A DNA stretch of 64,000 nt from Escherichia coli O157 typing phage 8. Location of the stretch: the sequence record KP869106. One strand, 5' to 3'. The position numbers and the translations under genes were made by a program. The notes under the pieces were generated by a model. That model was not told the DNA's origin and did not search any database. It worked only from the letters and a program-made list of their open reading frames with translations. Shown here one piece after another: positions 16,420 through 50,406 of the stretch (its first letter is position 1; every line of letters begins with the position of its first letter).

Positions 16420-18201
16420 ATGACTAAATCACTTTATGCAGTACCAGCAGGTTTAAATGCAGATGCTTACAAATCTGGTCATGTTTACCAGTATCCTAGT
16501 GCAACAGAATACTTGATGTTCAACCTGACACCACGTAGTGATAAATGGTTTAACAGCCCTTTAGCAATTGACGGTGTAGTGGCTTTTGGTATTCAACGTT
16601 TTGTTAAAGATTACTTGATAGACCACTGGAACGCCACTTTCTTTGAACGTGATAAAAAAGAAGCCATTGATGAAATCTTAGAAGTCATGAATGGTGTTCT
16701 GGGTAAAGATGCTATCGGTCGAGAGCATTGGGAAGCACTTCACGACTTAGGTTATCTACCAGTTGAAGTATACGCTGTAGAAGAAGGTACAGTTGTCCCT
16801 ATGCGTGTCCCAATGATTGTCTTCCAGAACACTGTTTCAGGTTTCCATTGGGTAGCGGGATATCTGGAAGATGCTTTCTCTGCTGAGATTTGGAAGGCTT
16901 GTACCATTGCAACTATTGCATTGCATTATAAACGCATCTGTAAGAAGTGGGCTGACCTTACTTGCGACAATGACTTACATTTACCTTATCAGTGCCATGA
17001 CTTTGCTATGCGTGGTATGTCCGGCTTTACTGATGACGCATTTAACGCTGTAGGCCACTTAACCAGCTTTAAAGGGACTGATAGCTTCCCTGCTGTATAT
17101 ACAGCTAAACGCATCTACGGACAGTCTTACCCAGTCTCTGATATTGGTGGTTCTGTACCAGCCACTGAACACTCTGTAATGTGTGCAAACATTGCTTGGG
17201 AAGGTGGTAATGAGTTGGTTGAAGAAGAAAGACGCTTTAAAGGTGAGTTGCAAACCTTCCGTCGCTTCTTAACAGAAACTTATCCAACTGGTATTGCAAG
17301 TATTGTTTCAGATACTTATAACTTCTGGAGAACTGTGTCAGAAATCTTACCAGCACTCCGTAAAGAAATTATGGAACGTGACGGTAAACTGGTGATTCGT
17401 CCTGATTCTGGAGACCCTGTACATATTGTCACAGGTTATAAAGCAATCCACTTAGAATGTGCTAAGAAGGCTTATTACGAGCACCTAAGCAAGCTGGAAG
17501 CCAGTGACACAATGCTGAATGCTGTTCTGAACATGAAGCTTGAAAATATCAGCTATGGTATTGCTGGATGGCTACTGTCAGAAGGCTACGAAATGGTTGT
17601 TGACAGAGAAGACTTTGAAGTTGCTGACACAGTGATGTTGAAAAATGCTTATATGGTTGGTTCTGCAAACGTTGTAACACGTCCTGTAGCTGAGATTGAT
17701 GGAGCTATTAAGACTCTGTATAACATCTTTGGAGGAACTATTAACTCTAAAGGTTTTAAGGTACTGGATGAGCACATTGGACTTATCTATGGCGACTCTA
17801 TCACGTTGGAACGTGCAAACGAAATCCTGAAGCGTCTGTATGAAATGGGGTTTGCAAGCTCTAACGTGGTGTTTGGTGTAGGCTCTTACACTTACCAGTA
17901 CATGACTCGTGACACCTTTGCATTTGCTGTCAAAGCAACTCTTGCAAGCATTGGTGGCAAAGAGATTATGCTTGCAAAAGACCCTAAAACAGATAGTGGT
18001 GTTAAGAAATCTGCCTTTGGTGGTGTAGCACCTATGTGGGATGGTGAGAATTTGAAAGCTGTAGATGGCTATGGATTCCAGAGCTTTGCAGATGCACTTG
18101 AACATCCAGCTTGTGCTTTACGTTTAGTCTTTAGCGACTCTGAGCAGTACGGTTACACAACTCTTGGTGATATTCGAAATAATATTGACAAGCAGCTTTA
18201 A
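16420..18201 (+). CDS. nicotinamide phosphoribosyltransferase (NAMPT)-family protein; candidate Namat of NARP1
   Basis: 593 aa; N-terminal YKSGHVYQYP resembles the NAMPT N-terminus; adjacent to Prs-like gene. Confidence 0.75.
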   Translation: MTKSLYAVPAGLNADAYKSGHVYQYPSATEYLMFNLTPRSDKWFNSPLAIDGVVAFGIQRFVKDYLIDHWNATFFERDKKEAIDEILEVMNGVLGKDAIGREHWEALHDLGYLPVEVYAVEEGTVVPMRVPMIVFQNTVSGFHWVAGYLEDAFSAEIWKACTIATIALHYKRICKKWADLTCDNDLHLPYQCHDFAMRGMSGFTDDAFNAVGHLTSFKGTDSFPAVYTAKRIYGQSYPVSDIGGSVPATEHSVMCANIAWEGGNELVEEERRFKGELQTFRRFLTETYPTGIASIVSDTYNFWRTVSEILPALRKEIMERDGKLVIRPDSGDPVHIVTGYKAIHLECAKKAYYEHLSKLEASDTMLNAVLNMKLENISYGIAGWLLSEGYEMVVDREDFEVADTVMLKNAYMVGSANVVTRPVAEIDGAIKTLYNIFGGTINSKGFKVLDEHIGLIYGDSITLERANEILKRLYEMGFASSNVVFGVGSYTYQYMTRDTFAFAVKATLASIGGKEIMLAKDPKTDSGVKKSAFGGVAPMWDGENLKAVDGYGFQSFADALEHPACALRLVFSDSEQYGYTTLGDIRNNIDKQL

Positions 18202-18214
18202 AAGTATATGATAA

Positions 18215-18238
18215 GAGGCTCCTACGGGAGCCTTTTTA
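18215..18238 (+). terminator. intrinsic terminator
   Basis: AGGCTCC-TACG-GGAGCCT followed by TTTTT. Confidence 0.6.
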
Positions 18239-18254
18239 ATTTCTGGAGAAGATT

Positions 18255-18590
18255 ATGAAAATCAAAGAGATGAACATCAACATTGTCTTAGAAGAACGTT
18301 GGGAGAATATTAAGAAACCTGAAGATGGTAAAAAGTTCCTTAACAAAATTTTAGTAGCAGCTAAAGAAGAACTGAATGGCAAGATTGCAGCAGCAGTCAC
18401 AATAAAAGTTTGTGTAAAAGGTCTTCCAGACAACCACCAATTTGCGCTTGACGAGTTTAAAAAAAGCTTCTACAATCCAAACAAACAGATGCTTGAAAGT
18501 AACTTTGCAGTATCTACAAGTATCGTCCATGACAGAAGCTTTATCCTTTACAAAAATATGAGAGGTGAGTCATGCAAGCATATTGGATAG
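18255..18590 (+). CDS. hypothetical protein
   Basis: ORF. Confidence 0.45.
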   Translation: MKIKEMNINIVLEERWENIKKPEDGKKFLNKILVAAKEELNGKIAAAVTIKVCVKGLPDNHQFALDEFKKSFYNPNKQMLESNFAVSTSIVHDRSFILYKNMRGESCKHIG

Positions 18591-22332: not shown

Positions 22333-22349
22333 TAAGTAATTTCTTAAAA

Positions 22350-22371
22350 GGCTGCTTCGGCGGCCTTTTTT
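22350..22371 (+). terminator. intrinsic terminator with TTCG tetraloop
   Basis: GGCTGC-TTCG-GCGGCC followed by TTTTTT. Confidence 0.55.
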
Positions 22372-22432
22372 ATTTGTATTTTGTGCAGAGTGCTGTATAA
22401 TTGATGTCACGATAAACTAAACAGGAGAACCA

Positions 22433-24130: not shown

Positions 24131-24142
24131 GGTTAAGATACA

Positions 24143-24163
24143 GGCTCCTTCGGGAGCCTTTTT
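24143..24163 (+). terminator. intrinsic terminator with TTCG tetraloop
   Basis: GGCTCC-TTCG-GGAGCC followed by TTTTT. Confidence 0.6.
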
Positions 24164-24182
24164 CATTTCAGGAGATTGTTAA

Positions 24183-39136: not shown

Positions 39137-39527
39137 AAAAACCTCTCTCTGCTTGTTCTATTTTTGCTCTTAAAGTTTCGCAATGCTGTAGATGGTAGTT
39201 AGCTTCTTGTTCATGTGTTGCTAACTGCCTTTCCAGAACAGATTTATAGTAACCTGCAAGTTGCTCTTTTGTCAATGGGTGCTCTGAAATAATATCAAGT
39301 CCACTTTCACCGAGAGGGTTGAATTGTCCATGTTCGTTGACATTGTAAGTCTCAAACTTGAACAGGCCATTGTTCACAGACTCAATAGGTGACAGTTCAA
39401 CAAGCTCTACAGTAAACCGTGTATATACCTTGTCACCTCTTGAAACCACATTGTTCCCGACAATGCGTACAAGCGAGCCATTACGAGTGTACTTAAAAGT
39501 CCCAAAGTCACTAGCCCAAAGTTTCAT
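39129..39527 (-). CDS. hypothetical protein
   Basis: ORF. Confidence 0.45.
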   Translation of the reverse strand: MKLWASDFGTFKYTRNGSLVRIVGNNVVSRGDKVYTRFTVELVELSPIESVNNGLFKFETYNVNEHGQFNPLGESGLDIISEHPLTKEQLAGYYKSVLERQLATHEQEANYHLQHCETLRAKIEQAERGFYE

Positions 39528-39540
39528 AGTTTTCTCCTTA

Positions 39541-39568
39541 GAAAATAAAAAAGGCTCCCGAAGGAGCC
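39541..39568 (-). terminator. intrinsic terminator for leftward transcription
   Basis: On the minus strand GGCTCC-TTCG-GGAGCC followed by TTTTTTATTTTC. Confidence 0.55.
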
Positions 39569-39578
39569 TATGAAGATA

Positions 39579-40043
39579 TTACTTTGGGTATACACTGTCA
39601 AGATAAATGTCAGCTTCCATTCTACGTCTGTTTTTCAGTCCGTTTGAAGTGACCTTCTTACCTTTGACTGTAACCTTGTTCCACCACTGCATAGCTTCTG
39701 CACAACCCACCTTATTACCAGCATTGTGGCGCTTGATAAATGTGGAATCCTGCATAGCTGTGATACCAATGTTGTATGTTTCACTTACAAGTGCGTCAAA
39801 CTCATTCTGAGAAGTTGGAACATTGACGGCTTTGTTCACTGCTGCAACAAACTTTTCAACATCTGCGAGAAGATACTGTTCAGCTTGTTCAGCGGTAATC
39901 TTCATACCCATCTTAACAGGTTTTCCGTCAATACGGATTGTCCCATACCCGATTGTTGGGATTCCGGCAGAATCTTCGTAAGCCTCTAACTCCAGACCTT
40001 CGAAGAACTTAATAGCATCTAAACCTTTTCTTGAGAGTTGCAT
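39579..40043 (-). CDS. T4-type lysozyme (glycoside hydrolase family 24)
   Basis: N-terminal FEGLELEAYEDSAGIPTIGYGT matches the GH24 catalytic Glu/Asp/Thr region. Confidence 0.75.
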   Translation of the reverse strand: MQLSRKGLDAIKFFEGLELEAYEDSAGIPTIGYGTIRIDGKPVKMGMKITAEQAEQYLLADVEKFVAAVNKAVNVPTSQNEFDALVSETYNIGITAMQDSTFIKRHNAGNKVGCAEAMQWWNKVTVKGKKVTSNGLKNRRRMEADIYLDSVYPK

Positions 40044-41176
40044 TACGCCTCCCCTGCTGGGTTAACTGTAACTGTTGCTGCATTAGATGTTACAGAGCCA
40101 CCTGCACCAGTAACTACACAGGTGTAGCTTCCTGCATCAGCAGCGGTCGCACCTTCTTTGGTGTAAGTTGCAGTAGTTGCATCGAGGATGTCTTCCTCAC
40201 CTTTCTTCCACTGGTAACCTGTCGCACCTGTTGCCACAACATTCAGCGTTAAGGTCTCACCTTCATTGATTTCTTGATTGGTTGGCTGTTGAGTAATTAC
40301 TGGAAGTGCGTTCACAGTTACTACAGCAGCATTAGATGTCACTGCACCACCCGCACCTGTTACAACGCAAGTATATGAGCCTGCATCTGCTGGCAGAGCA
40401 CCAGACTTGCTATAGGTAGCATTTGTAGCTGAAGGAATGTCAGAGCCATCTTTCTTCCACTGGTAACCTGTCGCACCTGTTGCAGTCACTTCCAAGTTAA
40501 TGCTTCCACCCTCATTGACAGTCTGACCAGAAGGCTGCTGTGTAATCACAGGCAGTGCATTAACAGCAACTGTTGCCGCATCTGAGGTAACACTTGTTCC
40601 AGCCTCTCCAGATACAACACAAGTGTATGAGCCAGCATCAGAAGGTACTACAGACTGTTTTGTATAAGTTGCAGAGGTGGCACTAGGAATATCCTCTCCA
40701 TCCTTTTTCCATTGATATCCAGTGGCATTCGTTGCAATAACACTTAGGGTAAGCGTACCACCTTCATTTACTGTTTGATTGGTTGGTTGCTGAGTGATTG
40801 CTGGTGGCTTGATAGCATCCTTCAACTTAGCATTCAACATTGAGAATGGTTTAACTCTTGCCAGCCATTCACAATAAATTGTGTCAACGTCTTTACCATT
40901 GATAATTGCATATTGTAAGTCCATGAAGAAGTCAGAAGTTCTCATTTGAGCACCAATGCTGTAAAGCAACTCATCACTAAATGGAACTTTGTAGTCTGGT
41001 TTGTAGTCAAACTCATCGACTTCTGCAATATCAGCTTCAGGCCAATACGAACTGTAGGTAAGCGGTAAAATAGCCTCTTGATATGTTCTAAAATCATATC
41101 TCTTACCAGCCTTTACGTTTGCAATGAAGCCCTTCACAAACTCTTTGAAGTCTGGGTAAGTCTTTGCTTTAATCAT
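40043..41176 (-). CDS. protein with three tandem Ig-like domains
   Basis: Three ~90 aa repeats each with ITQQP...GATGYQWKKDG...ADAGSYTCVV. Confidence 0.6.
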   Translation of the reverse strand: MIKAKTYPDFKEFVKGFIANVKAGKRYDFRTYQEAILPLTYSSYWPEADIAEVDEFDYKPDYKVPFSDELLYSIGAQMRTSDFFMDLQYAIINGKDVDTIYCEWLARVKPFSMLNAKLKDAIKPPAITQQPTNQTVNEGGTLTLSVIATNATGYQWKKDGEDIPSATSATYTKQSVVPSDAGSYTCVVSGEAGTSVTSDAATVAVNALPVITQQPSGQTVNEGGSINLEVTATGATGYQWKKDGSDIPSATNATYSKSGALPADAGSYTCVVTGAGGAVTSNAAVVTVNALPVITQQPTNQEINEGETLTLNVVATGATGYQWKKGEEDILDATTATYTKEGATAADAGSYTCVVTGAGGSVTSNAATVTVNPAGEA

Positions 41177-41544
41177 TTCTTTTCAGCCTCTAAATGTGCG
41201 TTTAGTCTAAAATAACCTTTGTGATTCGGAGATACATCACCAACGACAATACCTTTAACCTTATAGCCTTTACCAATTACATACTGGATATCCATAAGGA
41301 ATCTTCCAAGACCAACAATATGGAACATTGGGTATAATAGATTCTCAGAGTCTGGAATATTGATTTCAGGTTTGTAGGTACGCTGTTCGCTTGTTGGTGT
41401 AATATCTTCTTCAGGCCATTTACTGAGTCTCCATGTCAAAGGTGTTGGGATAACATCATTAAGGTTGTACCTTTCACCATTTTGCACGGAATTGATATAG
41501 GATTGTAGGAAGCAATAAAAGTCTTTTGCACTCTTAGCTTTCAT
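41173..41544 (-). CDS. paralog of the N-terminal domain of the Ig-like protein
   Basis: Shares KAK..DF..F...YIN..V..G.RY and FMD(L/I)QY(A/V)I with the 40043..41176 N-terminus. Confidence 0.5.
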   Translation of the reverse strand: MKAKSAKDFYCFLQSYINSVQNGERYNLNDVIPTPLTWRLSKWPEEDITPTSEQRTYKPEINIPDSENLLYPMFHIVGLGRFLMDIQYVIGKGYKVKGIVVGDVSPNHKGYFRLNAHLEAEKK

Positions 41545-41591
41545 TAAATATCCTTATAAATAGTTAAAGGGGCATAAGCCCCTATTCACAC

Positions 41592-42182
41592 TTAAGCTTT
41601 GGTCTTAAGTAGGTTCTTAAGTTTTTTAAGATTCATACTCTCATCAAACTTAAAACCAAATCCATTGACATAATCAATGAACTCGGATTTCTTACTGAGT
41701 GACAATGCGTAACTCATATCAAAGTTCTTACTTGTTTCTGCGTCTGGACTAGAGTTCACATCAAATGAAATTTCCGTAGGCTCTTGCTTACTTTTTCTCA
41801 TATTATCAACCAACAAACATGTATAGTTTGCTGGATAGAAATTTACACTACCATCAACGTAGCTGTACTTATTATTATGGATAAGGTTGGAAAATACCTT
41901 AAGGAATGTTTCTGAGTCGTGGCAAACAAGTTTGAATTGGCTGCTCTCTCCAAGCGCAACTAATGAATACGGACTTTCACTATCAAAGTCATAATTTGGA
42001 TTCGATGCCGTTACTGTTACACGCATCAAGTTATTAGCAATAGTCTTCTGTTTAAAAGAATTTTGAACATAGTGAAGACCTCTATCACACTGATTGACTA
42101 GCTCTTTAAGTAGGTCATTTGCATATGGTGAATTAATTGATACAGAGCCATCACTATTGTAATTAAAACTTACTGTTAACAT
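41592..42182 (-). CDS. hypothetical protein
   Basis: ORF. Confidence 0.45.
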   Translation of the reverse strand: MLTVSFNYNSDGSVSINSPYANDLLKELVNQCDRGLHYVQNSFKQKTIANNLMRVTVTASNPNYDFDSESPYSLVALGESSQFKLVCHDSETFLKVFSNLIHNNKYSYVDGSVNFYPANYTCLLVDNMRKSKQEPTEISFDVNSSPDAETSKNFDMSYALSLSKKSEFIDYVNGFGFKFDESMNLKKLKNLLKTKA

Positions 42183-42573: not shown

Positions 42574-42801
42574 GGCAGACCTACAGCTTTAACTAAGATG
42601 GTACAGTAATCCATACAACAAGTCAAGAACTATTGCAAGTTAAAAAAGTTGTTGACAAAGTACTTGACAAGGTGTAGGCTTATAAATACTTAGAAGATAA
42701 CTTAAAAGGTTCCTCTAAAAAGGCTATTTAAACAGATATCTTTCTGGATATCTATCTTTTATCTTAAAAGCCTTTTAAGAGGTCTTATAAGAGGCATACC
42801 A

Positions 42802-43173
42802 ATGAAAAACAGAACAAACAAAGGCCAGTTTAAAAAAGGCCAATCTGGAAACCCATCTGGAAGACCAAAAGGCTCTCGCAACAAAAGCTCACTTGTAAAA
42901 GCTCAACTGACCATTGATAATTCTGCTGAGTTTGCTGCAAAGTTGTTTGAAGCGATTGTTACAAGGGATGCTGCTAAGCTTGCAGAGTTCGGGTTAAACA
43001 CAGACGATGTAACCATCAAGAGCATGATTGAAGTCGGTAAAACTATCATGACCCACTCAGCAGGTGAGATGAAAGCAATTGCAGCAGACACTAAGAAGAC
43101 TCCTGATAACGGCGGTCAGTCTCAGACAGATAACAAACCAACGTTCTCTGCTGTTGCAACCCTTAAAAAATAA
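42802..43173 (+). CDS. hypothetical protein with N-terminal GNPSGRPKG motif
   Basis: Motif recurrent in small phage proteins of unknown function. Confidence 0.45.
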   Translation: MKNRTNKGQFKKGQSGNPSGRPKGSRNKSSLVKAQLTIDNSAEFAAKLFEAIVTRDAAKLAEFGLNTDDVTIKSMIEVGKTIMTHSAGEMKAIAADTKKTPDNGGQSQTDNKPTFSAVATLKK

Positions 43174-43254: not shown

Positions 43255-44670
43255 ATGAGCGAATTATTTAAACATGCGCACCTTCATGCAGGTCGAACTG
43301 AAAATGGTGCTGTAAACCATACTTCATCAATGTCTGCTCTTGTAGACTTTTACAAAGCTGCTGGTTCAAGCCGTAGCAATGTAGAAATCTTACCAGACCT
43401 GTTCTACAAAGCTTTGCGTGAGGATGTTGATGTTGCAGTTCGTATTTTACTGCATATGCGAGATGTACGAGAAGGTATGGGTGAGCGTAAAGCCTTCAGA
43501 ACTGTTTTACTTCAAGCGATTGAAGACAAAGTTTTAGAGTCTACGCAGGTTCTTCGCATTATGGATAAGATTGCAGAACTTGGTCGTTTTGATGACTTCA
43601 AAATCTTCGTAGGTACTCGTTTCGAGACAGATGCCTTCAAACACTTAGAAGCAGCATTACTAGACCCTGCAACAGCAGGTTTGGCGGCTAAGTGGTTACC
43701 ACGAGTCAAACCACGTCATAAGCAGTTTGTAAAACGTTTCTGCAAGTTTGCCAACTTGAGTGAGAAAGAGTACCGCACACTGTTGTCTGCACTATCTGAT
43801 ACAGTTGAGCAAAAAATCTCTGCTAATGAGTTTGGTAAGATTGACTACAGTAAGATTCCTTCACTTGCTGCTGCACGTTACCAAAAACTGTTTAACCGTA
43901 AAGATGGAGAGCGTTACAAAGCTTACATCGAGTCCTTATCAAAAGGTGAGACTAAGATTAACGCTGGTGCTGTTTACCCATACGATGTGATTAAATCTGT
44001 CAAGTATGGTAATGCAGATGTTGCTAATGAGCAGTGGAAAGCACTACCAAACTGGATGGCAGAAGGTGAAAACATCTTGTGTATGTCTGATGTATCAAGT
44101 TCAATGTCTTGGGTGAATTTTGGCTCCATTACTGCTCTGGATATTGGTGTATCACTTGCCTTGTATGTAGCAGAACGCAATACAGGTTGCTTTAAGAATG
44201 AGTTGATGGTTTATTCGACAAACCCTCACTTCATCGAACTGAGTGGTGATTTACGAAACCGTCATCGTCAGGTGATGCGACACGTTGAATATGGCTCAAC
44301 TAACTTACAAGCAGCTTTTGACCGCATTCTTGAAACAGGTAAAAGAAACAACTTGACTCAGAAAGATATGCCAAGTAAGCTTATCATCTTCTCCGATATG
44401 GAGTTTAATCAGGTTGATGGAGCTAACGGTCGTACAAACTTTGAAGCAATTCAGAGTAAGTACAAAAAAGCTGGATATGAGATGCCACAACTGGTATTCT
44501 GGTACTTAGCAAACCGTAATGGTACTTGCGAAGTATCTGTTAAGGATAACGGTGTAGCAATGGTATCAGGGTTCTCTCCAGCCACTTTAAAAGCTCTGCT
44601 TGGTGGTGAGAAGTTTGACCCAATCAGTGTAATGCTCAAAGCAGTAATGATTGACCGTTATATCTGGTAA
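43255..44670 (+). CDS. vWA-domain protein, Ro60/TROVE-like (tentative)
   Basis: MIDAS-like CMSDVSSSMS, then IIFSDMEFNQ and VAMVSGFSPATLKAL, resembling the Ro60 C-terminal vWA region as recalled; directly upstream of the tRNA cluster. Confidence 0.45.
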   Translation: MSELFKHAHLHAGRTENGAVNHTSSMSALVDFYKAAGSSRSNVEILPDLFYKALREDVDVAVRILLHMRDVREGMGERKAFRTVLLQAIEDKVLESTQVLRIMDKIAELGRFDDFKIFVGTRFETDAFKHLEAALLDPATAGLAAKWLPRVKPRHKQFVKRFCKFANLSEKEYRTLLSALSDTVEQKISANEFGKIDYSKIPSLAAARYQKLFNRKDGERYKAYIESLSKGETKINAGAVYPYDVIKSVKYGNADVANEQWKALPNWMAEGENILCMSDVSSSMSWVNFGSITALDIGVSLALYVAERNTGCFKNELMVYSTNPHFIELSGDLRNRHRQVMRHVEYGSTNLQAAFDRILETGKRNNLTQKDMPSKLIIFSDMEFNQVDGANGRTNFEAIQSKYKKAGYEMPQLVFWYLANRNGTCEVSVKDNGVAMVSGFSPATLKALLGGEKFDPISVMLKAVMIDRYIW

Positions 44671-44835: not shown

Positions 44836-44912
44836 CTCTGTTTAGCTCAGCTTGGTAGAGCGTTCCGTTTGGGGCGGTAAGGCCGGAGGTTCAAGTCCTC
44901 CAACAGAGACCA
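44836..44912 (+). tRNA. tRNA-Pro (anticodon UGG)
   Basis: Cloverleaf by eye: acceptor CTCTGTT/AACAGAG, anticodon loop TTTGGGG, T-loop TTCAAGT, CCA encoded. Confidence 0.7.
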
Positions 44913-44919
44913 AATTAAT

Positions 44920-44997
44920 GTTCCAGTAGACAAAATGGTAAAGTCACCACTCTTTCAAAGTGGATATCTGAGGGTTCAAATCCCTTCTGGAACGCCA
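44920..44997 (+). tRNA. tRNA-Glu (anticodon UUC)
   Basis: Acceptor GTTCCAG/CTGGAAC, anticodon stem CCACT/AGTGG, loop CTTTCAA, CCA encoded. Confidence 0.65.
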
Positions 44998-45004
44998 GTT
45001 TTGA

Positions 45005-45076
45005 CAGAAGACCAATTACAGCAAACTTAATCTACTCATCTGAAAGTTAATCGGACAAAGAAGATATTTGGTCTGG
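45005..45076 (+). repeat. inter-tRNA repeat element: CAGAAGACC-N-TTACAGCAA ... GGTCTGG
   Basis: One of 5 related copies; may contain a TTGACA promoter or be a small RNA / processing hairpin. Confidence 0.4.
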
Positions 45077-45087
45077 TCATTAAGAAT

Positions 45088-45164
45088 TGCGGGTATAGAG
45101 AAAGGGCGTCTCACATGTCTCATTAGCATGGTATCGGCAGGTTCGACTCCTGCACCCGCCTCCA
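45088..45164 (+). tRNA. tRNA-Met-like (anticodon CAU), atypical
   Basis: Anticodon stem CATGT/GCATG, loop CTCATTA, T-arm GCAGG-TTCGACT-CCTGC, CCA encoded; 1-72 mismatch and odd D-arm. Confidence 0.45.
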
Positions 45165-45170
45165 AATTTA

Positions 45171-45245
45171 CAGAAGACCGTTTACAGCAATATTTATTAA
45201 ATTTTTAGCGGAAAAAATTGAAAGATACGGTCTGGTAATACTAAA
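45171..45245 (+). repeat. inter-tRNA repeat element (copy 2)
   Basis: TTACAGAAGACCGTTTACAGCAA nearly identical to the copy at 45650. Confidence 0.4.
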
Positions 45246-45248
45246 CAT

Positions 45249-45325
45249 GGTTAGGAAGCACATAAGGTATGTGCGGTCGCCTGTTAAGCGAATGGCACAG
45301 GGTTCGAATCCCTGACTAACCGCCA
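45249..45325 (+). tRNA. tRNA-Asn (anticodon GUU)
   Basis: T-arm CAGGG-TTCGAAT-CCCTG, anticodon loop CTGTTAA, CCA encoded. Confidence 0.6.
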
Positions 45326-45334
45326 AATTTAAAT

Positions 45335-45422
45335 GTGTCGTTATCCCGTAGATGGTAGCGGTGGGGACTGTAAATCCCTTGTCATTGAGACTCGGTAGGT
45401 TCGACTCCTACACGGCACACCA
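45335..45422 (+). tRNA. tRNA-Tyr (anticodon GUA), long variable arm
   Basis: Acceptor GTGTCGT/ACGGCAC, anticodon loop CTGTAAA, T-arm GTAGG-TTCGACT-CCTAC, 88 nt. Confidence 0.6.
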
Positions 45423-45427
45423 ATAAA

Positions 45428-45505
45428 GGTTATGTAGTTTAATCTGGTTAAAATACTCCCCTGTCACGGGAGATGATGAGGGTTCGAATCCCTTCGTAAC
45501 CGCCA
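45428..45505 (+). tRNA. tRNA-Asp (anticodon GUC)
   Basis: Anticodon stem CTCCC/GGGAG, loop CTGTCAC, T-loop TTCGAAT, CCA encoded. Confidence 0.65.
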
Positions 45506-45566
45506 ATTTTGATAGGGCTATTTAGCCCCTCCCTTAAAGGGTTCTTACGAGTATTCTTTAAAGGAG

Positions 45567-45640
45567 CAGAAGACCAAATTCAGCAAGTTACTTAAAATTT
45601 CAAGCCAATTTAATTTTGAAAAATTTAAAACTTGGTCTGG
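45567..45640 (+). repeat. inter-tRNA repeat element (copy 3)
   Basis: GCAGAAGACCAAATTCAGCAA ... GGTCTGG. Confidence 0.4.
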
Positions 45641-45653
45641 CTCAACAAATTTA

Positions 45654-45785
45654 CAGAAGACCGTTTACAGCAAAACTTAAACAATCTATTTCTCCGGTAA
45701 AGAAAAGGCGAAGGTTCGATTCCTTCACTCGGCAGATGTCGAGTTGGTGTAATGGTAGCACTTAAGATGATAAACAACGGTCTGG
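45654..45785 (+). repeat. inter-tRNA repeat element (copy 4) enclosing an isolated T-arm-like hairpin
   Basis: CAGAAGACCGTTTACAGCAA ... GAAGG-TTCGATT-CCTTC then ACTCGGC-AGAT-GTCGAGT hairpin ... GGTCTGG; no complete cloverleaf. Confidence 0.35.
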
Positions 45786-45934
45786 TAATTACCTTTGTAG
45801 ATAAGTTATTAAGCTTACTTGTGAGTATGCGACCACAAAGGGTGAATGGGTAAATTCTAGATTTAAACCCAAAAAGGCACATCGCTACAGACCTTAAGCA
45901 AGTCTGGGTAGCTTATCTACAAAGATAATTTAAT

Positions 45935-46010
45935 GGAAGTGTAGCAGAATGGTGATGCGGCAGACTTTTAATCTGACAGGCGATGGGTTCGAATCCCTCC
46001 ACTTCTACCA
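45935..46010 (+). tRNA. tRNA-Lys-like (anticodon UUU), non-canonical T-stem
   Basis: Acceptor GGAAGTG/CACTTCT, anticodon loop CTTTTAA, T-loop TTCGAAT with only about 3 bp T-stem, CCA encoded. Confidence 0.45.
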
Positions 46011-46014
46011 ATAT

Positions 46015-46091
46015 GGTTCAGTCGCAGATAAGGTAATGCAAGGGTCTCATAAGCCCTATGAATGTGGGTTCGATTCCCATCTGAACCTCCA
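46015..46091 (+). tRNA. tRNA with anticodon CAU (Met or Ile2)
   Basis: Acceptor GGTTCAG/CTGAACC, anticodon stem AGGGT/GCCCT, loop CTCATAA, T-loop TTCGATT, CCA encoded. Confidence 0.6.
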
Positions 46092-46092
46092 A

Positions 46093-46168
46093 GCTGGTAT
46101 AGTTAAGAAGGTTATAACACTCCCCTGATAAGGGAACATCGGTGGTTCGATTCCACCTACCAGTACCA
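46093..46168 (+). tRNA. tRNA-Ile (anticodon GAU)
   Basis: Anticodon loop CTGATAA, T-arm GGTGG-TTCGATT-CCACC, CCA encoded. Confidence 0.65.
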
Positions 46169-46183
46169 ATTTCAATAAAGTTG

Positions 46184-46212
46184 TTGACATTGAGATGTGA
46201 CTACTTTATAGT
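46184..46212 (+). promoter_or_regulatory. sigma70-like promoter TTGACA-17-TATAGT inside tRNA cluster
   Basis: Consensus -35 and near-consensus -10 with 17 bp spacer. Confidence 0.55.
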
Positions 46213-46426
46213 AACCTTAGTTTTCGTTGCGTAGCGTCTATTTTGCAAATTTAAAATAAATGCAAACGACAATGTTTTTCTGGCAGTAGCTTGATAGGCT
46301 AAACACCAGTGAGGTCTTCCAATCCCTCATCAAAGAATTTGGCGTACTAGCCCACGGTATGATTAATAAGGTGGGCATCTTTAAGGGCTTTCTAAGAGAG
46401 TCTTTAAAGATAATTACGGGGCGTAT

Positions 46427-46508
46427 CTCAGCGGTCTTCTAAACCGCCGTTAACCGAGTAAGTGGAGTATGCGGGTTCGAGTCCTGCCGCCTCGACCAAT
46501 TTAGTTAG
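46427..46508 (+). ncRNA. tRNA-like RNA with aberrant architecture (pseudo-tRNA or Y-RNA-like candidate)
   Basis: Acceptor CGGGGCG/CGCCTCG, T-arm GCGGG-TTCGAGT-CCTGC, CCA encoded, hairpin GCGGT-CTTCTAA-ACCGC, but no D-arm and a 23 nt extra region. Confidence 0.4.
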
Positions 46509-46647
46509 CAGATTACTTAGACGACCTAAACGGGTCTTCCTGTAGGGAGGTGGTCTGTATCTCATGTTTTCCAGAACATGTAAATAATCTGAGAAGGGGC
46601 TTTACAGTGTTGAGATAATACGGTAAGCTTTGAATTATAGTTTTAAT

Positions 46648-46718
46648 AGGGGTGAGCTATGGCAGCAATAGAGTCTCCAAAATTCTTGATTAGAGTTCGA
46701 ATCTCTACACCCCTGCCA
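46648..46718 (+). ncRNA. tRNA-like RNA with degenerate anticodon arm
   Basis: Acceptor AGGGGTG/CACCCCT, D-arm CTAT...ATAG, T-arm TAGAG-TTCGAAT-CTCTA, but only about 19 nt with no good helix where the anticodon arm should be. Confidence 0.4.
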
Positions 46719-46732
46719 GAACAGGTGCTTGT

Positions 46733-47137
46733 ATGAAACTTTGTAGAAAATGTTCTCAAGAAAAGCCTTTAAGCTGCTTTCATAAAAGAGGTAATGGCTA
46801 TCAGTCTGCTTGTAAAGATTGTAAAGCTAAGTACTCAGCAAAGAGATACAAAGAAGACCCTACTTATAAAGCAAAAAGAAAAGTTAGGGCAAAATATGAC
46901 AAAAAGAGGAACAGAGAGTTCCTTAGTAGATATAAAAAGTTTTGCAAATGCAGAATATGTGGCGAATCTGAGCCAGTAGCTTTGGATTTTCATCACTTAG
47001 ACCCTAAAGAGAAAGATTTTGCTCCAAGCAATCTTAAAACTTACTCTAGAGGCACTATTAAGCGTGAAGTCCGTAAGTGTGTTGTGCTTTGTTCAAACTG
47101 TCATAGGAAAGTTCATGCAGGACTGTTAAGTATTTAA
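46733..47137 (+). CDS. HNH homing endonuclease embedded in tRNA cluster
   Basis: Cys-rich N-terminal zinc-finger-like region; HNH core FHHLDPKEKDF...CVVLCSNCHRKVH. Confidence 0.75.
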   Translation: MKLCRKCSQEKPLSCFHKRGNGYQSACKDCKAKYSAKRYKEDPTYKAKRKVRAKYDKKRNREFLSRYKKFCKCRICGESEPVALDFHHLDPKEKDFAPSNLKTYSRGTIKREVRKCVVLCSNCHRKVHAGLLSI

Positions 47138-47150
47138 CAGTCTTATTAGG

Positions 47151-47238
47151 GGTAGGTAGCGGCTAATGGCAGCCAAACAGTCTTGAAAACTGTTGCCACT
47201 GTAGAGATACGGTGAGGGTTCGACTCCTTTACTTACCG
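47151..47238 (+). tRNA. tRNA-Ser (anticodon UGA), long variable arm, CCA not encoded
   Basis: Acceptor GGTAGGT/ACTTACC, anticodon stem ACAGT/ACTGT, loop CTTGAAA, T-loop TTCGACT. Confidence 0.55.
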
Positions 47239-47394
47239 CCTAATAAGATTTACTCCGTCCATGCTTGTTCGCATTGTCGGTTTATCCCTCGTGTATTGTC
47301 GTACACTGTCAAAGCACCTAGTAGGTGTCACGGAGAAGAGATAATATCAAGCTCTCCAAAGGTTCTAGTCACCGGATTAAACAAGACTATGCAA

Positions 47395-47415
47395 AGACCT
47401 ATTTAGGTCTTTTTA
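47395..47415 (+). terminator. intrinsic terminator
   Basis: AGACCT-ATTT-AGGTCT followed by TTTTT. Confidence 0.5.
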
Positions 47416-47494
47416 GAGGGCTTCTAAGGTTATTAGTCGCTTGTTGTGGAACCTTGTTGCTCAGGTTCTTAGAAGTTCTCTAAAAAGATTTAAT

Positions 47495-47571
47495 GCACCT
47501 ATAGCCCAACTGGTAGAGGCAGCAGACTTAGAATCTGCTCAGTGTGAGTTCGAATCTCTCTAGGTGTACCA
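47495..47571 (+). tRNA. tRNA with anticodon UAG (Leu by anticodon) but class-I length
   Basis: Acceptor GCACCTA/TAGGTGT, anticodon stem GCAGA/TCTGC, loop CTTAGAA, A73, CCA encoded. Confidence 0.5.
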
Positions 47572-47578
47572 AATTAAT

Positions 47579-47654
47579 GCAGGTGTAGCAAAATGGTTAT
47601 GCGGCTGACTCTTAATCAGTAAGACGATGGGTTCAATTCCCTCCACCTGTACCA
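47579..47654 (+). tRNA. tRNA-Lys-like (anticodon CUU), non-canonical T-stem
   Basis: Acceptor GCAGGTG/CACCTGT, anticodon stem GCTGA/TCAGT, loop CTCTTAA, T-loop TTCAATT, CCA encoded. Confidence 0.5.
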
Positions 47655-47660
47655 AACAAT

Positions 47661-47736
47661 GGGGTCATAGTTTATATGGTTAAAATTCGAGTTTTGCAAA
47701 CTTGGGAACTGAGTTCAATTCTCAGTGACTCCACCA
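47661..47736 (+). tRNA. tRNA-Ala (anticodon UGC)
   Basis: Acceptor GGGGTCA/TGACTCC, anticodon loop TTTGCAA, T-arm CTGAG-TTCAATT-CTCAG, CCA encoded. Confidence 0.65.
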
Positions 47737-47742
47737 ATTAGT

Positions 47743-47817
47743 GCATCCATAGTTTAAACGGGAAAATTACAGTCTTCCAAACTGAGGTTGAGGGTTCGAT
47801 TCCCTCTGGATGCTCCA
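47743..47817 (+). tRNA. tRNA-Gly (anticodon UCC)
   Basis: Acceptor GCATCCA/TGGATGC, anticodon loop CTTCCAA, T-arm GAGGG-TTCGATT-CCCTC, CCA encoded. Confidence 0.65.
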
Positions 47818-47824
47818 AATTAAT

Positions 47825-47900
47825 GCTCCTATCGTATAATTGGTTATTACGGTTGCCTTGTAAGCAACTTATCAGGGTTCGAGTCCTTGTGGGAGCACCA
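47825..47900 (+). tRNA. tRNA-Thr (anticodon UGU)
   Basis: Anticodon stem GTTGC/GCAAC, loop CTTGTAA, T-loop TTCGAGT, CCA encoded. Confidence 0.65.
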
Positions 47901-47904
47901 ATTC

Positions 47905-47990
47905 GGAGGTCAAGTGAAAGACCGCTTTGAGTCAACTGAAGACCGTAACAAATTCCACGAAGTTGAGTTAGCGGCACAACTTCAGACCTC
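47905..47990 (+). repeat. inter-tRNA repeat element (copy 5), long imperfect hairpin
   Basis: GGAGGTC...CTGAAGACCGTAACAAATTCC...CTTCAGACCTC. Confidence 0.4.
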
Positions 47991-47996
47991 TTTCAT

Positions 47997-48071
47997 ACTC
48001 GCTTAGTTTATATGGTAAAACATCACCCTTACAAGATGAAGAAAAAGGTTCAAGTCCTTTAGTGAGTACCA
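47997..48071 (+). tRNA. tRNA-Val (anticodon UAC)
   Basis: Acceptor ACTCGCT/AGTGAGT, D-stem GTTT/AAAC, anticodon loop CTTACAA, T-arm AAAGG-TTCAAGT-CCTTT, CCA encoded. Confidence 0.6.
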
Positions 48072-48072
48072 T

Positions 48073-48150
48073 GTTCCAGTATCCCAATTGGCAGAGGATG
48101 CAAGCTCAAACCTTGTATTAGTGACGGTTCGAATCCGTCTTGGAACACCA
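48073..48150 (+). tRNA. tRNA with anticodon CAA (Leu by anticodon) but class-I length
   Basis: Acceptor GTTCCAG/TTGGAAC, anticodon stem GCAAG/CTTGT, loop CTCAAAC, A73, CCA encoded. Confidence 0.5.
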
Positions 48151-48155
48151 ATTTT

Positions 48156-48231
48156 GCAGGATTAGTTCAAATGGAAAGAGCAACAGTCTACGAAGCTGTT
48201 AATAGGGGTTCGAATCCCTTATCCTGCGCCA
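48156..48231 (+). tRNA. tRNA-Arg (anticodon ACG)
   Basis: Acceptor GCAGGAT/ATCCTGC, anticodon stem ACAGT/GCTGT, loop CTACGAA, T-arm AGGGG-TTCGAAT-CCCTT, CCA encoded. Confidence 0.65.
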
Positions 48232-48248
48232 GATAAAAAGGTGATACT

Positions 48249-48491
48249 ATGCAAACATTAACAGTAGTTGAACATGAAAACTGTGAGAGTATTGAGTTTG
48301 TCAGGGTCATTGGTGTTGAACACCACATTTTCTTAAAAGTGGGATACTTATGTGACCCCACTAGAGTAGAAAGATTTATACGTGATTGTTTTGGTGGTAG
48401 ACATCTGAAGAGTGTTATTTTTGAGACAGTTTTACCAGAAGGTTTAGAAACGAATAATAACATTTACCTCCTTACGAGGATTAGACAATGA
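48249..48491 (+). CDS. hypothetical protein embedded in tRNA cluster
   Basis: 80 aa ORF in-line with downstream ORF. Confidence 0.35.
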   Translation: MQTLTVVEHENCESIEFVRVIGVEHHIFLKVGYLCDPTRVERFIRDCFGGRHLKSVIFETVLPEGLETNNNIYLLTRIRQ

Positions 48492-49045
48492 GATACTTAA
48501 AGTATGCTTCATGGATTTTCTTAGCTTTGTTAGAGCCATTTGCAGCAATCTTAGCAGTTATCTTAGCACCTTTTGTAGTTCCATTCTACAGTGAGAAGAA
48601 AGGACACTTGCCTTTCGGGTTCAGATGGATGGAGACTTATGACAACCCAATTGATGGTGATGCAGGTCATATCAAACGATGGGCTAAGATTAGAAAGATT
48701 GGTAAGCTTGGTGTCTACATGCAGAGAGTTGGATGGCTCTGGAGAAACAAAGCTTATAACTTCTCTTACCATGTATTAGGAAGAGATGTAAAAGATGTTA
48801 CTAAGTGGAAAGGTAATATCAACGTAAGTTCTAACCCTGAAGATAATCAGACTGGTTATCTCCTAATGTGGAACAGTAATGCTTGGGGGTTATTCGCTTT
48901 TGTGCCGTCAATCAAAATCTTTGGTAAACAATTTTACTGGAGAATTTATATTGGGTGGAAACTTAAAAGCGTTGTCCCAGAAGAAAGAGCATTTTCAAGG
49001 GAAAGAGTTATGTTGGCATTCTTTATTCATCCACTAAGAAAGTAA
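48488..49045 (+). CDS. hypothetical membrane protein embedded in tRNA cluster
   Basis: 185 aa, N-terminal hydrophobic helix, Trp/aromatic-rich. Confidence 0.45.
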   Translation: MRYLKYASWIFLALLEPFAAILAVILAPFVVPFYSEKKGHLPFGFRWMETYDNPIDGDAGHIKRWAKIRKIGKLGVYMQRVGWLWRNKAYNFSYHVLGRDVKDVTKWKGNINVSSNPEDNQTGYLLMWNSNAWGLFAFVPSIKIFGKQFYWRIYIGWKLKSVVPEERAFSRERVMLAFFIHPLRK

Positions 49046-49053
49046 AGATTTAA

Positions 49054-49129
49054 AGGGGATTAGTTTACAAGGTTAAAACCTCGGTCTTTGAAATCGAAGA
49101 AGTTGGTTCAATTCCAACATCCCCCGCCA
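49054..49129 (+). tRNA. tRNA-Gln (anticodon UUG)
   Basis: Acceptor AGGGGAT/ATCCCCC with weak 1-72 pair, anticodon loop CTTTGAA, T-arm GTTGG-TTCAATT-CCAAC, CCA encoded. Confidence 0.6.
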
Positions 49130-49131
49130 AT

Positions 49132-49210
49132 GCTCCATTACTCCAATTGGCAGAGAGGCCAGACTTAAAATCTGTGTTATGTATCGGTTCGAATCCGATA
49201 TGGAGTACCA
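49132..49210 (+). tRNA. tRNA with anticodon UAA (Leu by anticodon), short variable region
   Basis: Acceptor GCTCCAT/ATGGAGT, anticodon loop CTTAAAA, T-arm ATCGG-TTCGAAT-CCGAT, A73, CCA encoded. Confidence 0.5.
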
Positions 49211-49215
49211 AATTT

Positions 49216-49291
49216 AGCGGTATAGCATAACTGGCAATGCAGCAGTCTCTGAAGCTGTCCTATTAAGGTTCAAATCCTTATGCCGCTGCCA
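49216..49291 (+). tRNA. tRNA-Gln (anticodon CUG)
   Basis: Acceptor AGCGGTA/TGCCGCT, D-stem GCAT/ATGC, anticodon loop CTCTGAA, T-arm TAAGG-TTCAAAT-CCTTA, CCA encoded. Confidence 0.6.
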
Positions 49292-49322
49292 CTTCTAAGG
49301 ATTCTTACGAGAGTCCTTAAAT

Positions 49323-49398
49323 GTGGCCTTATCATAAATGGTAATGACCCATGCTGTGAACATGGTCTATACGGGTTCAAATCCCGTAGGTCACCCCA
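49323..49398 (+). tRNA. tRNA-His (anticodon GUG)
   Basis: D-stem TCAT/ATGA, anticodon stem CCATG/CATGG, loop CTGTGAA, C73, CCA encoded. Confidence 0.65.
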
Positions 49399-49403
49399 AT
49401 TTA

Positions 49404-49479
49404 TAGTCCAAGTAGCTTATATGGTTAAAGCGCGTGTCTGAAAAACATGAGAAGAGGGTTCAAATCCCACTGGACTACC
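49404..49479 (+). tRNA. tRNA-Phe (anticodon GAA)
   Basis: Anticodon stem CGTGT/ACATG, loop CTGAAAA, T-loop TTCAAAT; acceptor register ambiguous. Confidence 0.5.
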
Positions 49480-50231
49480 AATTTCAAAGGTGCTTAATGA
49501 AAGAGATGACAGAACAAGGTAAGGAGATTTTCAATCTCTTAAAAACCGGTAAAGGGTTTTCTAACCCCCTTATTACTGGTGCAGCAGTTCTCGGTGGAAC
49601 CGTAGCTGCCTCTACATCACTTGTAAGCTCTATTAGCTCTGTATCAGACCCTACAGTAAAGGATAAGCTTGTTGCTGCTGGACTTACAACAGTTCTGCTT
49701 AACAGCTTTACCACGAGTCTGACAAGCACTACATCAACTACCAAAACACTAACAGATTACGGTCAAAAGTCCATTGATGAGTTTTCATCACGTATGCAGG
49801 TAGCAAAAGGTTACTCAAATGTTATGGGTGCAGCAGGTGAACAAGTTGGCTGTACACCATTTAGTGGTATTATGGGTGTTGCTACAGAGTATGGTCAAAA
49901 AGCTATTGATACGATTAACAGTGCACTAGATAGTGTTAATGGTGTGTTAAGTGACTTACAAGATGCTATTGACAAAGGTCTTGATACTATTTCTGATTTA
50001 GCTGAGCAAGCTGTTAGTAAGATTAATGAAGGTATTTCAAAAATTACAGCTTATGCAGATGAAGTTGTGCAGATGATTGAAGAAGAAGCTGCTCTTATTG
50101 CAGAGTACCTTAAAACGAATATCAATGGGTTCTTAGCAGGTATCTTACCAGACTGGTTTGATGATGCTTGTAAAACTGGTGTAATTGACACTATTGCAAC
50201 ACCAGAAATGAAGAACGCATTACAGAAATAA
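49434..50231 (+). CDS. hypothetical protein (Ser/Thr/Ala-rich)
   Basis: ORF-track 5' end overlaps tRNA-Phe; true start probably the ATG near 49497 (MKEMTEQ...). Confidence 0.45.
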   Translation: MSEKHEKRVQIPLDYQFQRCLMKEMTEQGKEIFNLLKTGKGFSNPLITGAAVLGGTVAASTSLVSSISSVSDPTVKDKLVAAGLTTVLLNSFTTSLTSTTSTTKTLTDYGQKSIDEFSSRMQVAKGYSNVMGAAGEQVGCTPFSGIMGVATEYGQKAIDTINSALDSVNGVLSDLQDAIDKGLDTISDLAEQAVSKINEGISKITAYADEVVQMIEEEAALIAEYLKTNINGFLAGILPDWFDDACKTGVIDTIATPEMKNALQK

Positions 50232-50234
50232 ATG

Positions 50235-50326
50235 GAAGATTAACCCTAAAAGGTAAGGGAGCAGTTTGCTAAACTGCCAGTAGCTGAGAAATCGGTGTAC
50301 CAGTTCAAGTCTGGTATCTTCCTCCA
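50235..50326 (+). tRNA. tRNA-Ser (anticodon GCU), long variable arm
   Basis: Acceptor GGAAGAT/ATCTTCC, anticodon stem GCAGT/ACTGC, loop TTGCTAA, ~21 nt variable arm, T-arm ACCAG-TTCAAGT-CTGGT, CCA encoded. Confidence 0.6.
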
Positions 50327-50330
50327 ATTT

Positions 50331-50406
50331 GAATCCGTGACAGAAACGGCTATGTGCCTGTCTGCAAAACAGGTTTATAAGGGTTCGAGTCCCTTCGGAT
50401 TCTCCA
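50331..50406 (+). tRNA. tRNA-Cys (anticodon GCA)
   Basis: Acceptor GAATCCG/CGGATTC, anticodon stem CCTGT/ACAGG, loop CTGCAAA, T-arm AAGGG-TTCGAGT-CCCTT, CCA encoded. Confidence 0.6.

Follow-up and report, generated by a model that had tools for sequence, protein, structure and literature searches.

A conserved Ig-less paralog of the capsid-binding domain is encoded directly upstream of the Hex-Dec decoration protein gene in the Felix O1-like phage wV8

A 64,000-nucleotide stretch of DNA from Escherichia coli O157 typing phage 8 (sequence record KP869106; the whole stretch is referred to here as the window) showed 100% identity to Escherichia phage wV8 (Felixounavirus, Felix O1-like) and was found to encode, immediately upstream of the gene for a capsid decoration protein, a conserved protein without immunoglobulin (Ig) domains that is a variant, apparently so far undescribed, of a known capsid-binding module. 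This variant is gp42 (WV8_gp042, phrog_4463; 41173..41544), a hypothetical protein in wV8 with 123 aa, an isoelectric point (pI) of 8.6, and no Ig domain. Its gene is the first of three tightly packed open reading frames (ORFs) on the minus strand that are transcribed in the order gp42, gp41, and gp40. The second encodes gp41 (WV8_gp041, phrog_3995; 40043..41176; 377 aa), a Hoc-like decoration protein of the Hex-Dec kind that is annotated as a "tail protein," and the third encodes gp40 (39579..40043; 154 aa), an endolysin of the T4-type GH24 lysozyme family. A preliminary description of the window, made from its letters, had placed three ORFs at these coordinates, and all three were present. 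Our overall explanation, which we consider probable, is that the three genes form a late cassette composed of the Hex-Dec gene, the endolysin gene, and a gene for a second protein, gp42, whose role is weighed below.

The module in question is the capsid-binding domain (CapBD) of Hex-Dec, a protein whose place on the capsid and manner of binding were worked out in 2025; gp41 is an ortholog of it. In phmmer searches, gp41 matched Hex-Dec of Bas63 (Escherichia phage JohannRWettstein; 9NCF chain S, E=6.9e-288) and gp20 of Shigella phage Sf14 (Mooglevirus; 9C2D and 9C3A chain S, E=8.1e-169), in both cases aligned from residue 1, and it matched phrog_3995 with E=2.9e-209. In Bas63 and Sf14, the N-terminal 118 to 120 aa or so constitute the CapBD, which has pseudo-two-fold lobes and which, according to cryo-electron microscopy (cryo-EM), docks as a monomer at the centre of the 60 pentamer-adjacent (quasi-three-fold) hexamers only of the T=9 head (PMC12609058, PMC11821841). 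In Sf14 gp20, residues R79 and R107 pair by salt bridges with Asp221 in three of a hexamer's six capsid subunits, and the true three-fold hexamers are without Hex-Dec because two of the three Asp221 residues are displaced from R79 and R107 there (PMC11821841). The Ig domains are disordered and point outward, and a Hoc-like role was proposed by both groups (PMC12609058, PMC11821841).

These elements were all found in wV8. The CapBD of gp41 (residues 1 to 124; 40805..41176, minus strand, with limits set by aligning gp41 to chains of 9NCF and 9C2D) differs from that of Bas63 Hex-Dec at 5 of 124 residues and keeps both R79 and R107, and the wV8 major capsid protein (MCP) differs from that of Bas63 at 4 of 368 positions and keeps D221. 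Thus gp41 has the features of the Hex-Dec family, namely, a homologous CapBD, both arginines, and one to four C-terminal Ig-like domains, with three in this case. Furthermore, orthologs of gp41 have been recovered from virions: Felix O1 gp36 was present in purified virions with 44% coverage by mass spectrometry (MS) in 2010 (PMC3185647), and MS of Sf14 virions likewise identified gp20 (PMC11821841). The preliminary description had suggested a Hoc-like decoration protein with Ig repeats, to be checked by virion proteomics; for the orthologs this check is already published, and cryo-EM places them in hexamer centres. We regard it as nearly certain that gp41 is Hex-Dec and gp40 the endolysin, and since gp41 is already characterised in its orthologs, most of the novelty of the observation is removed. 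By the same token, a single copy of gp41 would sit, by its N-terminal 120 aa or so, in the depression at the middle of each of the 60 pentamer-adjacent hexamers of the T=9 head, anchored by the salt bridges that R79 and R107 form with Asp221 on three of the six capsid subunits, and its three acidic Ig domains of the I-set type would project outward as a flexible fibre.

The ORF upstream of gp41 had been described, with no function suggested for it, as a paralog of the N-terminal domain alone, and this proved correct. gp42 aligned to residues 2 to 100 of gp41 with 38% identity (BLASTP E=7e-17), the homology with the CapBD spanned the whole domain, and 30 columns were invariant in a 15-member alignment of both families; the invariant polar columns include K2, D8, E45, D47, D85, K109, and N115. 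gp42 and gp41 each matched the PHROG family to which the other belongs (E=4.7e-15 and 4.9e-17), and gp42 matched its own family, phrog_4463, with E=1.7e-79 and the structurally characterised chains 9ncf_S and 9c2d_S with an E of about 1e-11 over residues 2 to 117. In a neighbour-joining tree, the stand-alone proteins and the fused domains were reciprocally monophyletic. Outside both clades was the single CapBD-Big_2 gene of Kolesnikvirus (for example, Hafnia phage SPARTY_111; P0101, P0102), which occupies the same slot as the Hex-Dec gene, directly upstream of the lysozyme gene, and encodes a homologous CapBD (profile E=2e-10) fused to a display domain of the bacterial Big_2/YjdB type rather than to I-set repeats. 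Since Kolesnikvirus has no stand-alone paralog, it serves as an outgroup that dates the duplication. Judged from these sequence comparisons, gp42 arose when the capsid-binding domain alone was duplicated, once and long ago. An exhaustive profile search of 1.8 billion representative proteins returned 12 clusters with a CapBD, implying that the domain is confined to this phage group. In a metagenomic contig (SRR33913825_5192, 5001-5462), the Hex-Dec slot in front of the lysozyme gene holds a 153-aa protein in which the CapBD is followed not by an Ig domain but by a tail rich in Lys and Ser that is probably disordered; the occurrence of a single Ig-less CapBD in this distant lineage implies that the CapBD can be a product in its own right. 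No further copies of the CapBD or of the Ig domain were found elsewhere in the window.

The paralog is widely conserved. An ortholog of gp42 (at least 60% identity by tblastn) was present in 233 of 252 records of Felixounavirus, Mooglevirus, and Suspvirus, and in all three genera the order was gp43-like gene, paralog, Hex-Dec gene, and lysozyme gene with overlapping or abutting junctions. A metagenomic relative of 87 kb, with a paralog just 44% identical, had the same order. The median pairwise ratio of nonsynonymous to synonymous substitution rates (dN/dS) for gp42 was 0.12 at a dS of about 1 or more among six phages, compared with 0.03 for the fused CapBD, 0.09 for the first Ig domain, 0.07 for the lysozyme, and 0.085 for gp43. 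The gp42 gene is thus under purifying selection. These values bear on the proposal that gp42 is a functionless relic of the duplication or a mis-called ORF, for which its absence from the 19 remaining, viable records and its lack of any family annotation could be cited. We consider this proposal highly improbable, given the low dN/dS, the intact ORF in so many records and in the diverged metagenomic lineage, a Shine-Dalgarno sequence of its own (AAGGA), and the transcription of the Felix O1 ortholog.

The 19 records without gp42, among them viable isolates from E. coli, Salmonella, and Shigella, share one decayed remnant of the gene, in which the start codon has been lost and about 228 nt have been deleted internally. 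Because the remnant is the same in all 19 records, independent losses were rejected in favour of a single event. In phage REP6 the remnant lies at 2306-2497, and phage Z31 belongs to the same clade of Felixounaviruses; mio and SP116 are further phages that naturally lack gp42. Most of these phages have an intact Hex-Dec gene (293 aa in REP6; most of the 19 annotate a "tail protein"), and this observation is relevant to a possible role of gp42 as a chaperone or loading factor that keeps the CapBD soluble or guides Hex-Dec to the right hexamers. Such a role would suit a gene that lies immediately upstream of Hex-Dec, overlaps it, and peaks late along with it, and the pseudo-C2 lobes of the CapBD (PMC12609058) would make pairing with a paralog plausible. 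However, besides the clade that keeps Hex-Dec without gp42, there are distant relatives, Kolesnikvirus among them, that encode CapBD decoration proteins and lack a paralog. The evidence argues against an obligatory chaperone role, and we consider a role of this kind quite unlikely.

The most distinctive property of the stand-alone family is the replacement of the residues that anchor Hex-Dec to the capsid. In the column of R79, all 10 stand-alone proteins had Gly and all 5 fused proteins had Arg, which was also kept in the Kolesnikvirus outgroup; in the column of R107, the stand-alone proteins had Asn, Gln, or His (10 of 10) and the fused proteins Arg (5 of 5). The loop around R79 was polar in the fused proteins (AQMRTSD) and apolar in the stand-alone proteins (HIVGLGx), each version being conserved within its own family. 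Moreover, gp42 is basic and the CapBD of gp41 acidic (pI 8.6 versus 5.2). Two features of the CapBD family were thus absent from gp42, the anchoring Arg79/Arg107 pair and a fused Ig domain (no Pfam Ig match).

This pattern invites the idea that the two paralogs partition the hexamers of the mature virion, Hex-Dec occupying the 60 pentamer-adjacent hexamers and gp42 capping the 20 three-fold hexamers. The two arginines replaced in gp42 are exactly those whose Asp221 partners are displaced in the three-fold hexamers, and a protein without R79 and R107 would not depend on the Asp221 geometry there; a basic gp42 would also suit a capsomer centre lined with Asp (PMC11821841), and late expression from overlapping ORFs would suit a comparable stoichiometry of the two proteins. 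On the other hand, Bas63 (bas63_0125) and Sf14 both encode the gp42 paralog, and no density was present on the remaining hexamers in either cryo-EM map (PMC12609058, PMC11821841). Because icosahedral averaging would smear out a single copy located on a strict three-fold axis, the maps weigh against three-fold decoration and do no more than that. The orthologs of gp42 were also missing from the two virion proteomes discussed below, and the 19 viable records dispense with the gene. We therefore regard the partition of the mature head as unlikely. A broader version appears similarly improbable to us, in which one duplication gave rise to two specialised proteins for all 80 hexamers of the T=9 head, with gp42 on the 20 three-fold hexamers or on skewed procapsid hexamers; gp42 would then have escaped notice through averaging on the axis or through its departure at maturation.

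Expression and virion composition were considered next to these structural data. In Felix O1, ORFs 36 and 37 both reach maximal transcription late, at 60 min, together with the portal and tail genes. The ortholog of gp42 is absent from the MS list of Felix O1 virion proteins (PMC3185647), and by inference it is also absent from the 22 virion proteins of VpaE1, in which it is ORF40c. It should be detectable by MS, since gp42 yields seven tryptic peptides of 7 to 30 aa, among them YNLNDVIPTPLTWR and FLMDIQYVIGK, that cover 103 of its 123 residues.

These absences would fit a gp42 that is a late cytoplasmic protein with a new partner other than the capsid, such as a host factor, a component of lysis timing, or a defence or anti-defence target. 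A change of partner would also be in keeping with the loss of both anchoring arginines, with the change of the R79 loop from polar to apolar, conserved within families, and with the faster evolution of gp42 relative to the fused CapBD. Nevertheless, searches of Pfam, NCBIfam, and PADLOC gave no match to gp42, so no alternative function is indicated, the 30 invariant columns shared with the CapBD include polar ones, and the conserved close linkage to the Hex-Dec gene, with overlap of the two ORFs, favours a related role. A non-capsid function is possible and, in our judgment, rather doubtful.

The reading that we prefer, and hold tentatively, is that gp42 still recognises hexamer centres, in a state or at a site that Hex-Dec does not use. 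Apart from this reading, gp42 is probably a functional but dispensable late protein, in which the residues that determine the fold are kept and both anchoring arginines are replaced, and it is probably not a stable, stoichiometric component of the virion. On the preferred reading, its targets may be, for example, the hexamers of the unexpanded procapsid, or its binding may be transient or of low occupancy; in either case it would act as an Ig-less accessory in head assembly or maturation and not as a displayed decoration. Several points weigh against this explanation or parts of it. The capsid-related role suggested for gp42 derives from homology only, and the loss of both anchoring arginines could mean that gp42 no longer binds capsids. 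Likewise, the Hoc-like adhesion role suggested for the Ig fibre in the Ounavirinae is drawn by analogy. The proteomic cutoffs were stringent (at least 25% coverage for Felix O1), and the absence from VpaE1 virions was taken from the text of that study and not from a table. Finally, the structure prediction proposed in the preliminary description was of limited help for the shared N-terminal domain: the AlphaFold2 models were of low confidence for both paralogs, with a predicted local distance difference test (pLDDT) score of 54 for gp42 and of 36 to 81 per ten-residue block for gp41 residues 1 to 120. The supportive part of this result was that the gp42 model had 9c2d_S as its sole PDB match in Foldseek (probability 1.0, template modeling score 0.61). 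With models this poor, the shared fold is indicated mainly by sequence together with one Foldseek match to a low-confidence model. The Sf14 authors reported that the predicted N-terminal domain of their protein does not match the density either (PMC11821841).

In gp42, nature provides a conserved Ig-less copy of the hexamer-centre module in which the known anchoring residues have been specifically replaced, and a viable natural gp42 knockout clade exists for comparison. The paralog opens the question of what sets the hexamer choice of decoration proteins on a T=9 capsid, as well as that of action before maturation. Felix O1-like phages serve in diagnostics, biocontrol, and display, and the occupants of hexamer centres matter for capsid engineering. 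In the literature on Bas63, Sf14, Felix O1, wV8, and VpaE1 and in comparative work on Felixounavirus, no mention of the paralog was found.

For gp41, the practical gain is the correction of the "tail protein" annotation, which has been propagated through hundreds of Felix O1-like genomes. This label and that of "HK97 major tail subunit" are contradicted by cryo-EM; both arise from similarity of the Ig domains to tail proteins, the matches to phrog_158 and phrog_853 being in the Ig region only. The repeats, which the preliminary description had taken for Ig domains, bore that designation out. Repeat 1 (residues 125 to 208; 40553..40804), repeat 2 (residues 209 to 291; 40304..40552), and repeat 3 with a short C-terminal tail (residues 292 to 377; 40046..40303), all on the minus strand and delimited with Pfam and AlphaFold2, were each matched along their entire length by the Pfam families Ig_3, I-set, and Ig_2 (E=1.7e-33 to 1.5e-25, exceeding the curated cutoffs). 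They were modelled as all-beta sandwiches with a pLDDT of about 95, and the model matched the Ig tandems of titin, Robo, and LRIG1 in Foldseek with E values of about 1e-18 to 1e-20. The repeats, of 83 to 86 aa each, were 71 to 72% identical in protein and just 64 to 68% identical in DNA, and TRF reported no array; a recent tandem duplication of DNA was accordingly rejected, and the repeats are old.

Among relatives, the Ig copy number ranges from one to four, and some repeats look like hybrids. The second Ig domain of Felix O1 is 83% identical to repeat 2 of wV8 and 87% identical to repeat 3, and the single Ig domain of EC6 is 81% identical to repeat 1 and 88% identical to repeat 3. The varying copy number and the hybrid repeats suggest occasional unequal recombination between repeats. 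Bas63 Hex-Dec has four Ig repeats versus three in wV8, the extra one lying between the equivalents of wV8 repeats 2 and 3. Sf14 gp20 has three and conserves R79 and R107; it is more diverged from gp41, especially in the Ig domains. In Sf14 a stand-alone paralog lies directly upstream of gp20, as in wV8, and the neighbourhood in Bas63 is also the same, with a gp43-like gene, the CapBD-only paralog, Hex-Dec, and the endolysin. In Z31 the Hex-Dec gene is split into ORFs of 405 and 168 nt, and in Salmonella phage ST11 the paralog is intact and Hex-Dec is in three ORFs, which could reflect real decay or sequencing error.

T4 Hoc, which is non-essential for T4, resembles gp41 in that a monomer sits at hexamer centres and a string of Ig domains, forming an acidic fibre, extends from a small capsid-binding domain; moreover, the Ig region of gp41 matches Hoc-like PHROGs. 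By analogy with T4 Hoc, the gp41 fibre probably either lets virions adhere weakly to surfaces or glycans or affects their aggregation. Hoc differs, however, in having its capsid-binding domain at the C terminus and not, as in gp41, at the N terminus, in a distinct topology, and in minimal sequence similarity (PMC12609058). Hex-Dec, unlike T4 Hoc, is placed on one hexamer class only, and no stand-alone capsid-binding paralog has been reported for Hoc in the literature compared. Thus, gp41 works like Hoc and is not a member of the Hoc family. T5 pb10 (5LXK, 8ZVI) is similar to gp41 in having a capsid-binding domain at the N terminus with an Ig-like domain after it, and in its position at hexamer centres (PMC11821841), but it has a single Ig domain versus three, and the similarity (E of about 4e-12) is confined to residues 132 to 210 of gp41.

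The third gene of the block gave clear matches. gp40 matched PF00959 (Phage_lysozyme) with E=9e-41 and 139.6 bits (cutoff, 22.3) over profile positions 2 to 125 of 125, and it matched the phrog_7 endolysin family; no N-terminal membrane anchor was visible, and gp40 is a soluble GH24 endolysin. The unusual location of the decoration gene, to which the preliminary description had drawn attention, is real. It lies next to this T4-type lysozyme gene, on the strand opposite to that of the gene for its binding partner, the MCP (56548..57654, plus strand; 9ncf_A, E=2.8e-248), from which it is separated by about 15 kb and a cluster of 24 tRNA genes. The other capsid decoration, the beta-tulip trimeric decoration protein Dec, is encoded at 56137..56514 on the plus strand (9ncf_J, E=5.5e-79). 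For Bas63, the authors had already remarked that the Hex-Dec gene is separated from the structural module by over 10 kb (PMC12609058).

Within the block, the stop codon of gp42 and the start codon of gp41 overlap in the sequence ATGA (41173..41176, minus strand), which suggests translational coupling, and the same junction is present in Felix O1, EC6, Moogle, and Sf13. The stop codon of gp41 and the start codon of gp40 overlap in TAATG (40041..40045, minus strand), and the corresponding junctions in relatives are overlapping or abutting. A programmed -1 frameshift that would fuse gp42 to Hex-Dec was also considered, since Felix O1 and EC6 have a slippery run (GCT AAA AAG AAA TGA) immediately ahead of the overlap, with Hex-Dec in the -1 frame; this candidate was rejected because the run is not kept in wV8 (GCT GAA AAG), Moogle and Sf13 (GCT AAG AAA), or SUSP2. 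The upstream edge of the block is a GC-rich hairpin (GGGGCTTATGCCCC followed by a T-rich run) between gp43 and gp42 (41569..41582, minus strand), which the wV8 RefSeq record gives as a rho-independent terminator, and the downstream edge is a strong intrinsic terminator 3' of the endolysin gene (39552..39569, minus strand), found by a scan and present in the wV8 and Tribble annotations. Between the upstream hairpin and gp42 there is a gap of 47 nt, in which no dedicated sigma-70 promoter was found. The sequence AACTATTTATAAGG, at 41552-41565 in this gap, recurs with 2 mismatches at 42678-42691, in the divergent promoter region upstream of gp45; its enrichment is weak (4 matches versus 0.84 expected, with 2 of 100 shuffles reaching 4).

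The gp43 gene (41592-42182, phrog_4034, 196 aa) kept its position as well as the decoration and lysozyme genes did in all lineages examined; gp43 had no match in NCBIfam or in defence and anti-defence families, and a distant homolog had a faint Phage_Inh_N match only. Directly upstream of the 24-tRNA-gene cluster (44836-50403) lie a DUF5681 gene (42802-43173) and a gene for a DUF2828/DUF7788 protein with the annotation "RNA-binding protein" (43255-44670); in the distant metagenomic relatives L014 and L017, too, this pair is diverged from the block of decoration and lysozyme genes. Lastly, the terminator region at 39522-39585 was 81 to 96% identical to 18201-18260, 22334-22375, and 24142-24168, in the opposite orientation, and it looks like a repeated terminator-type element.

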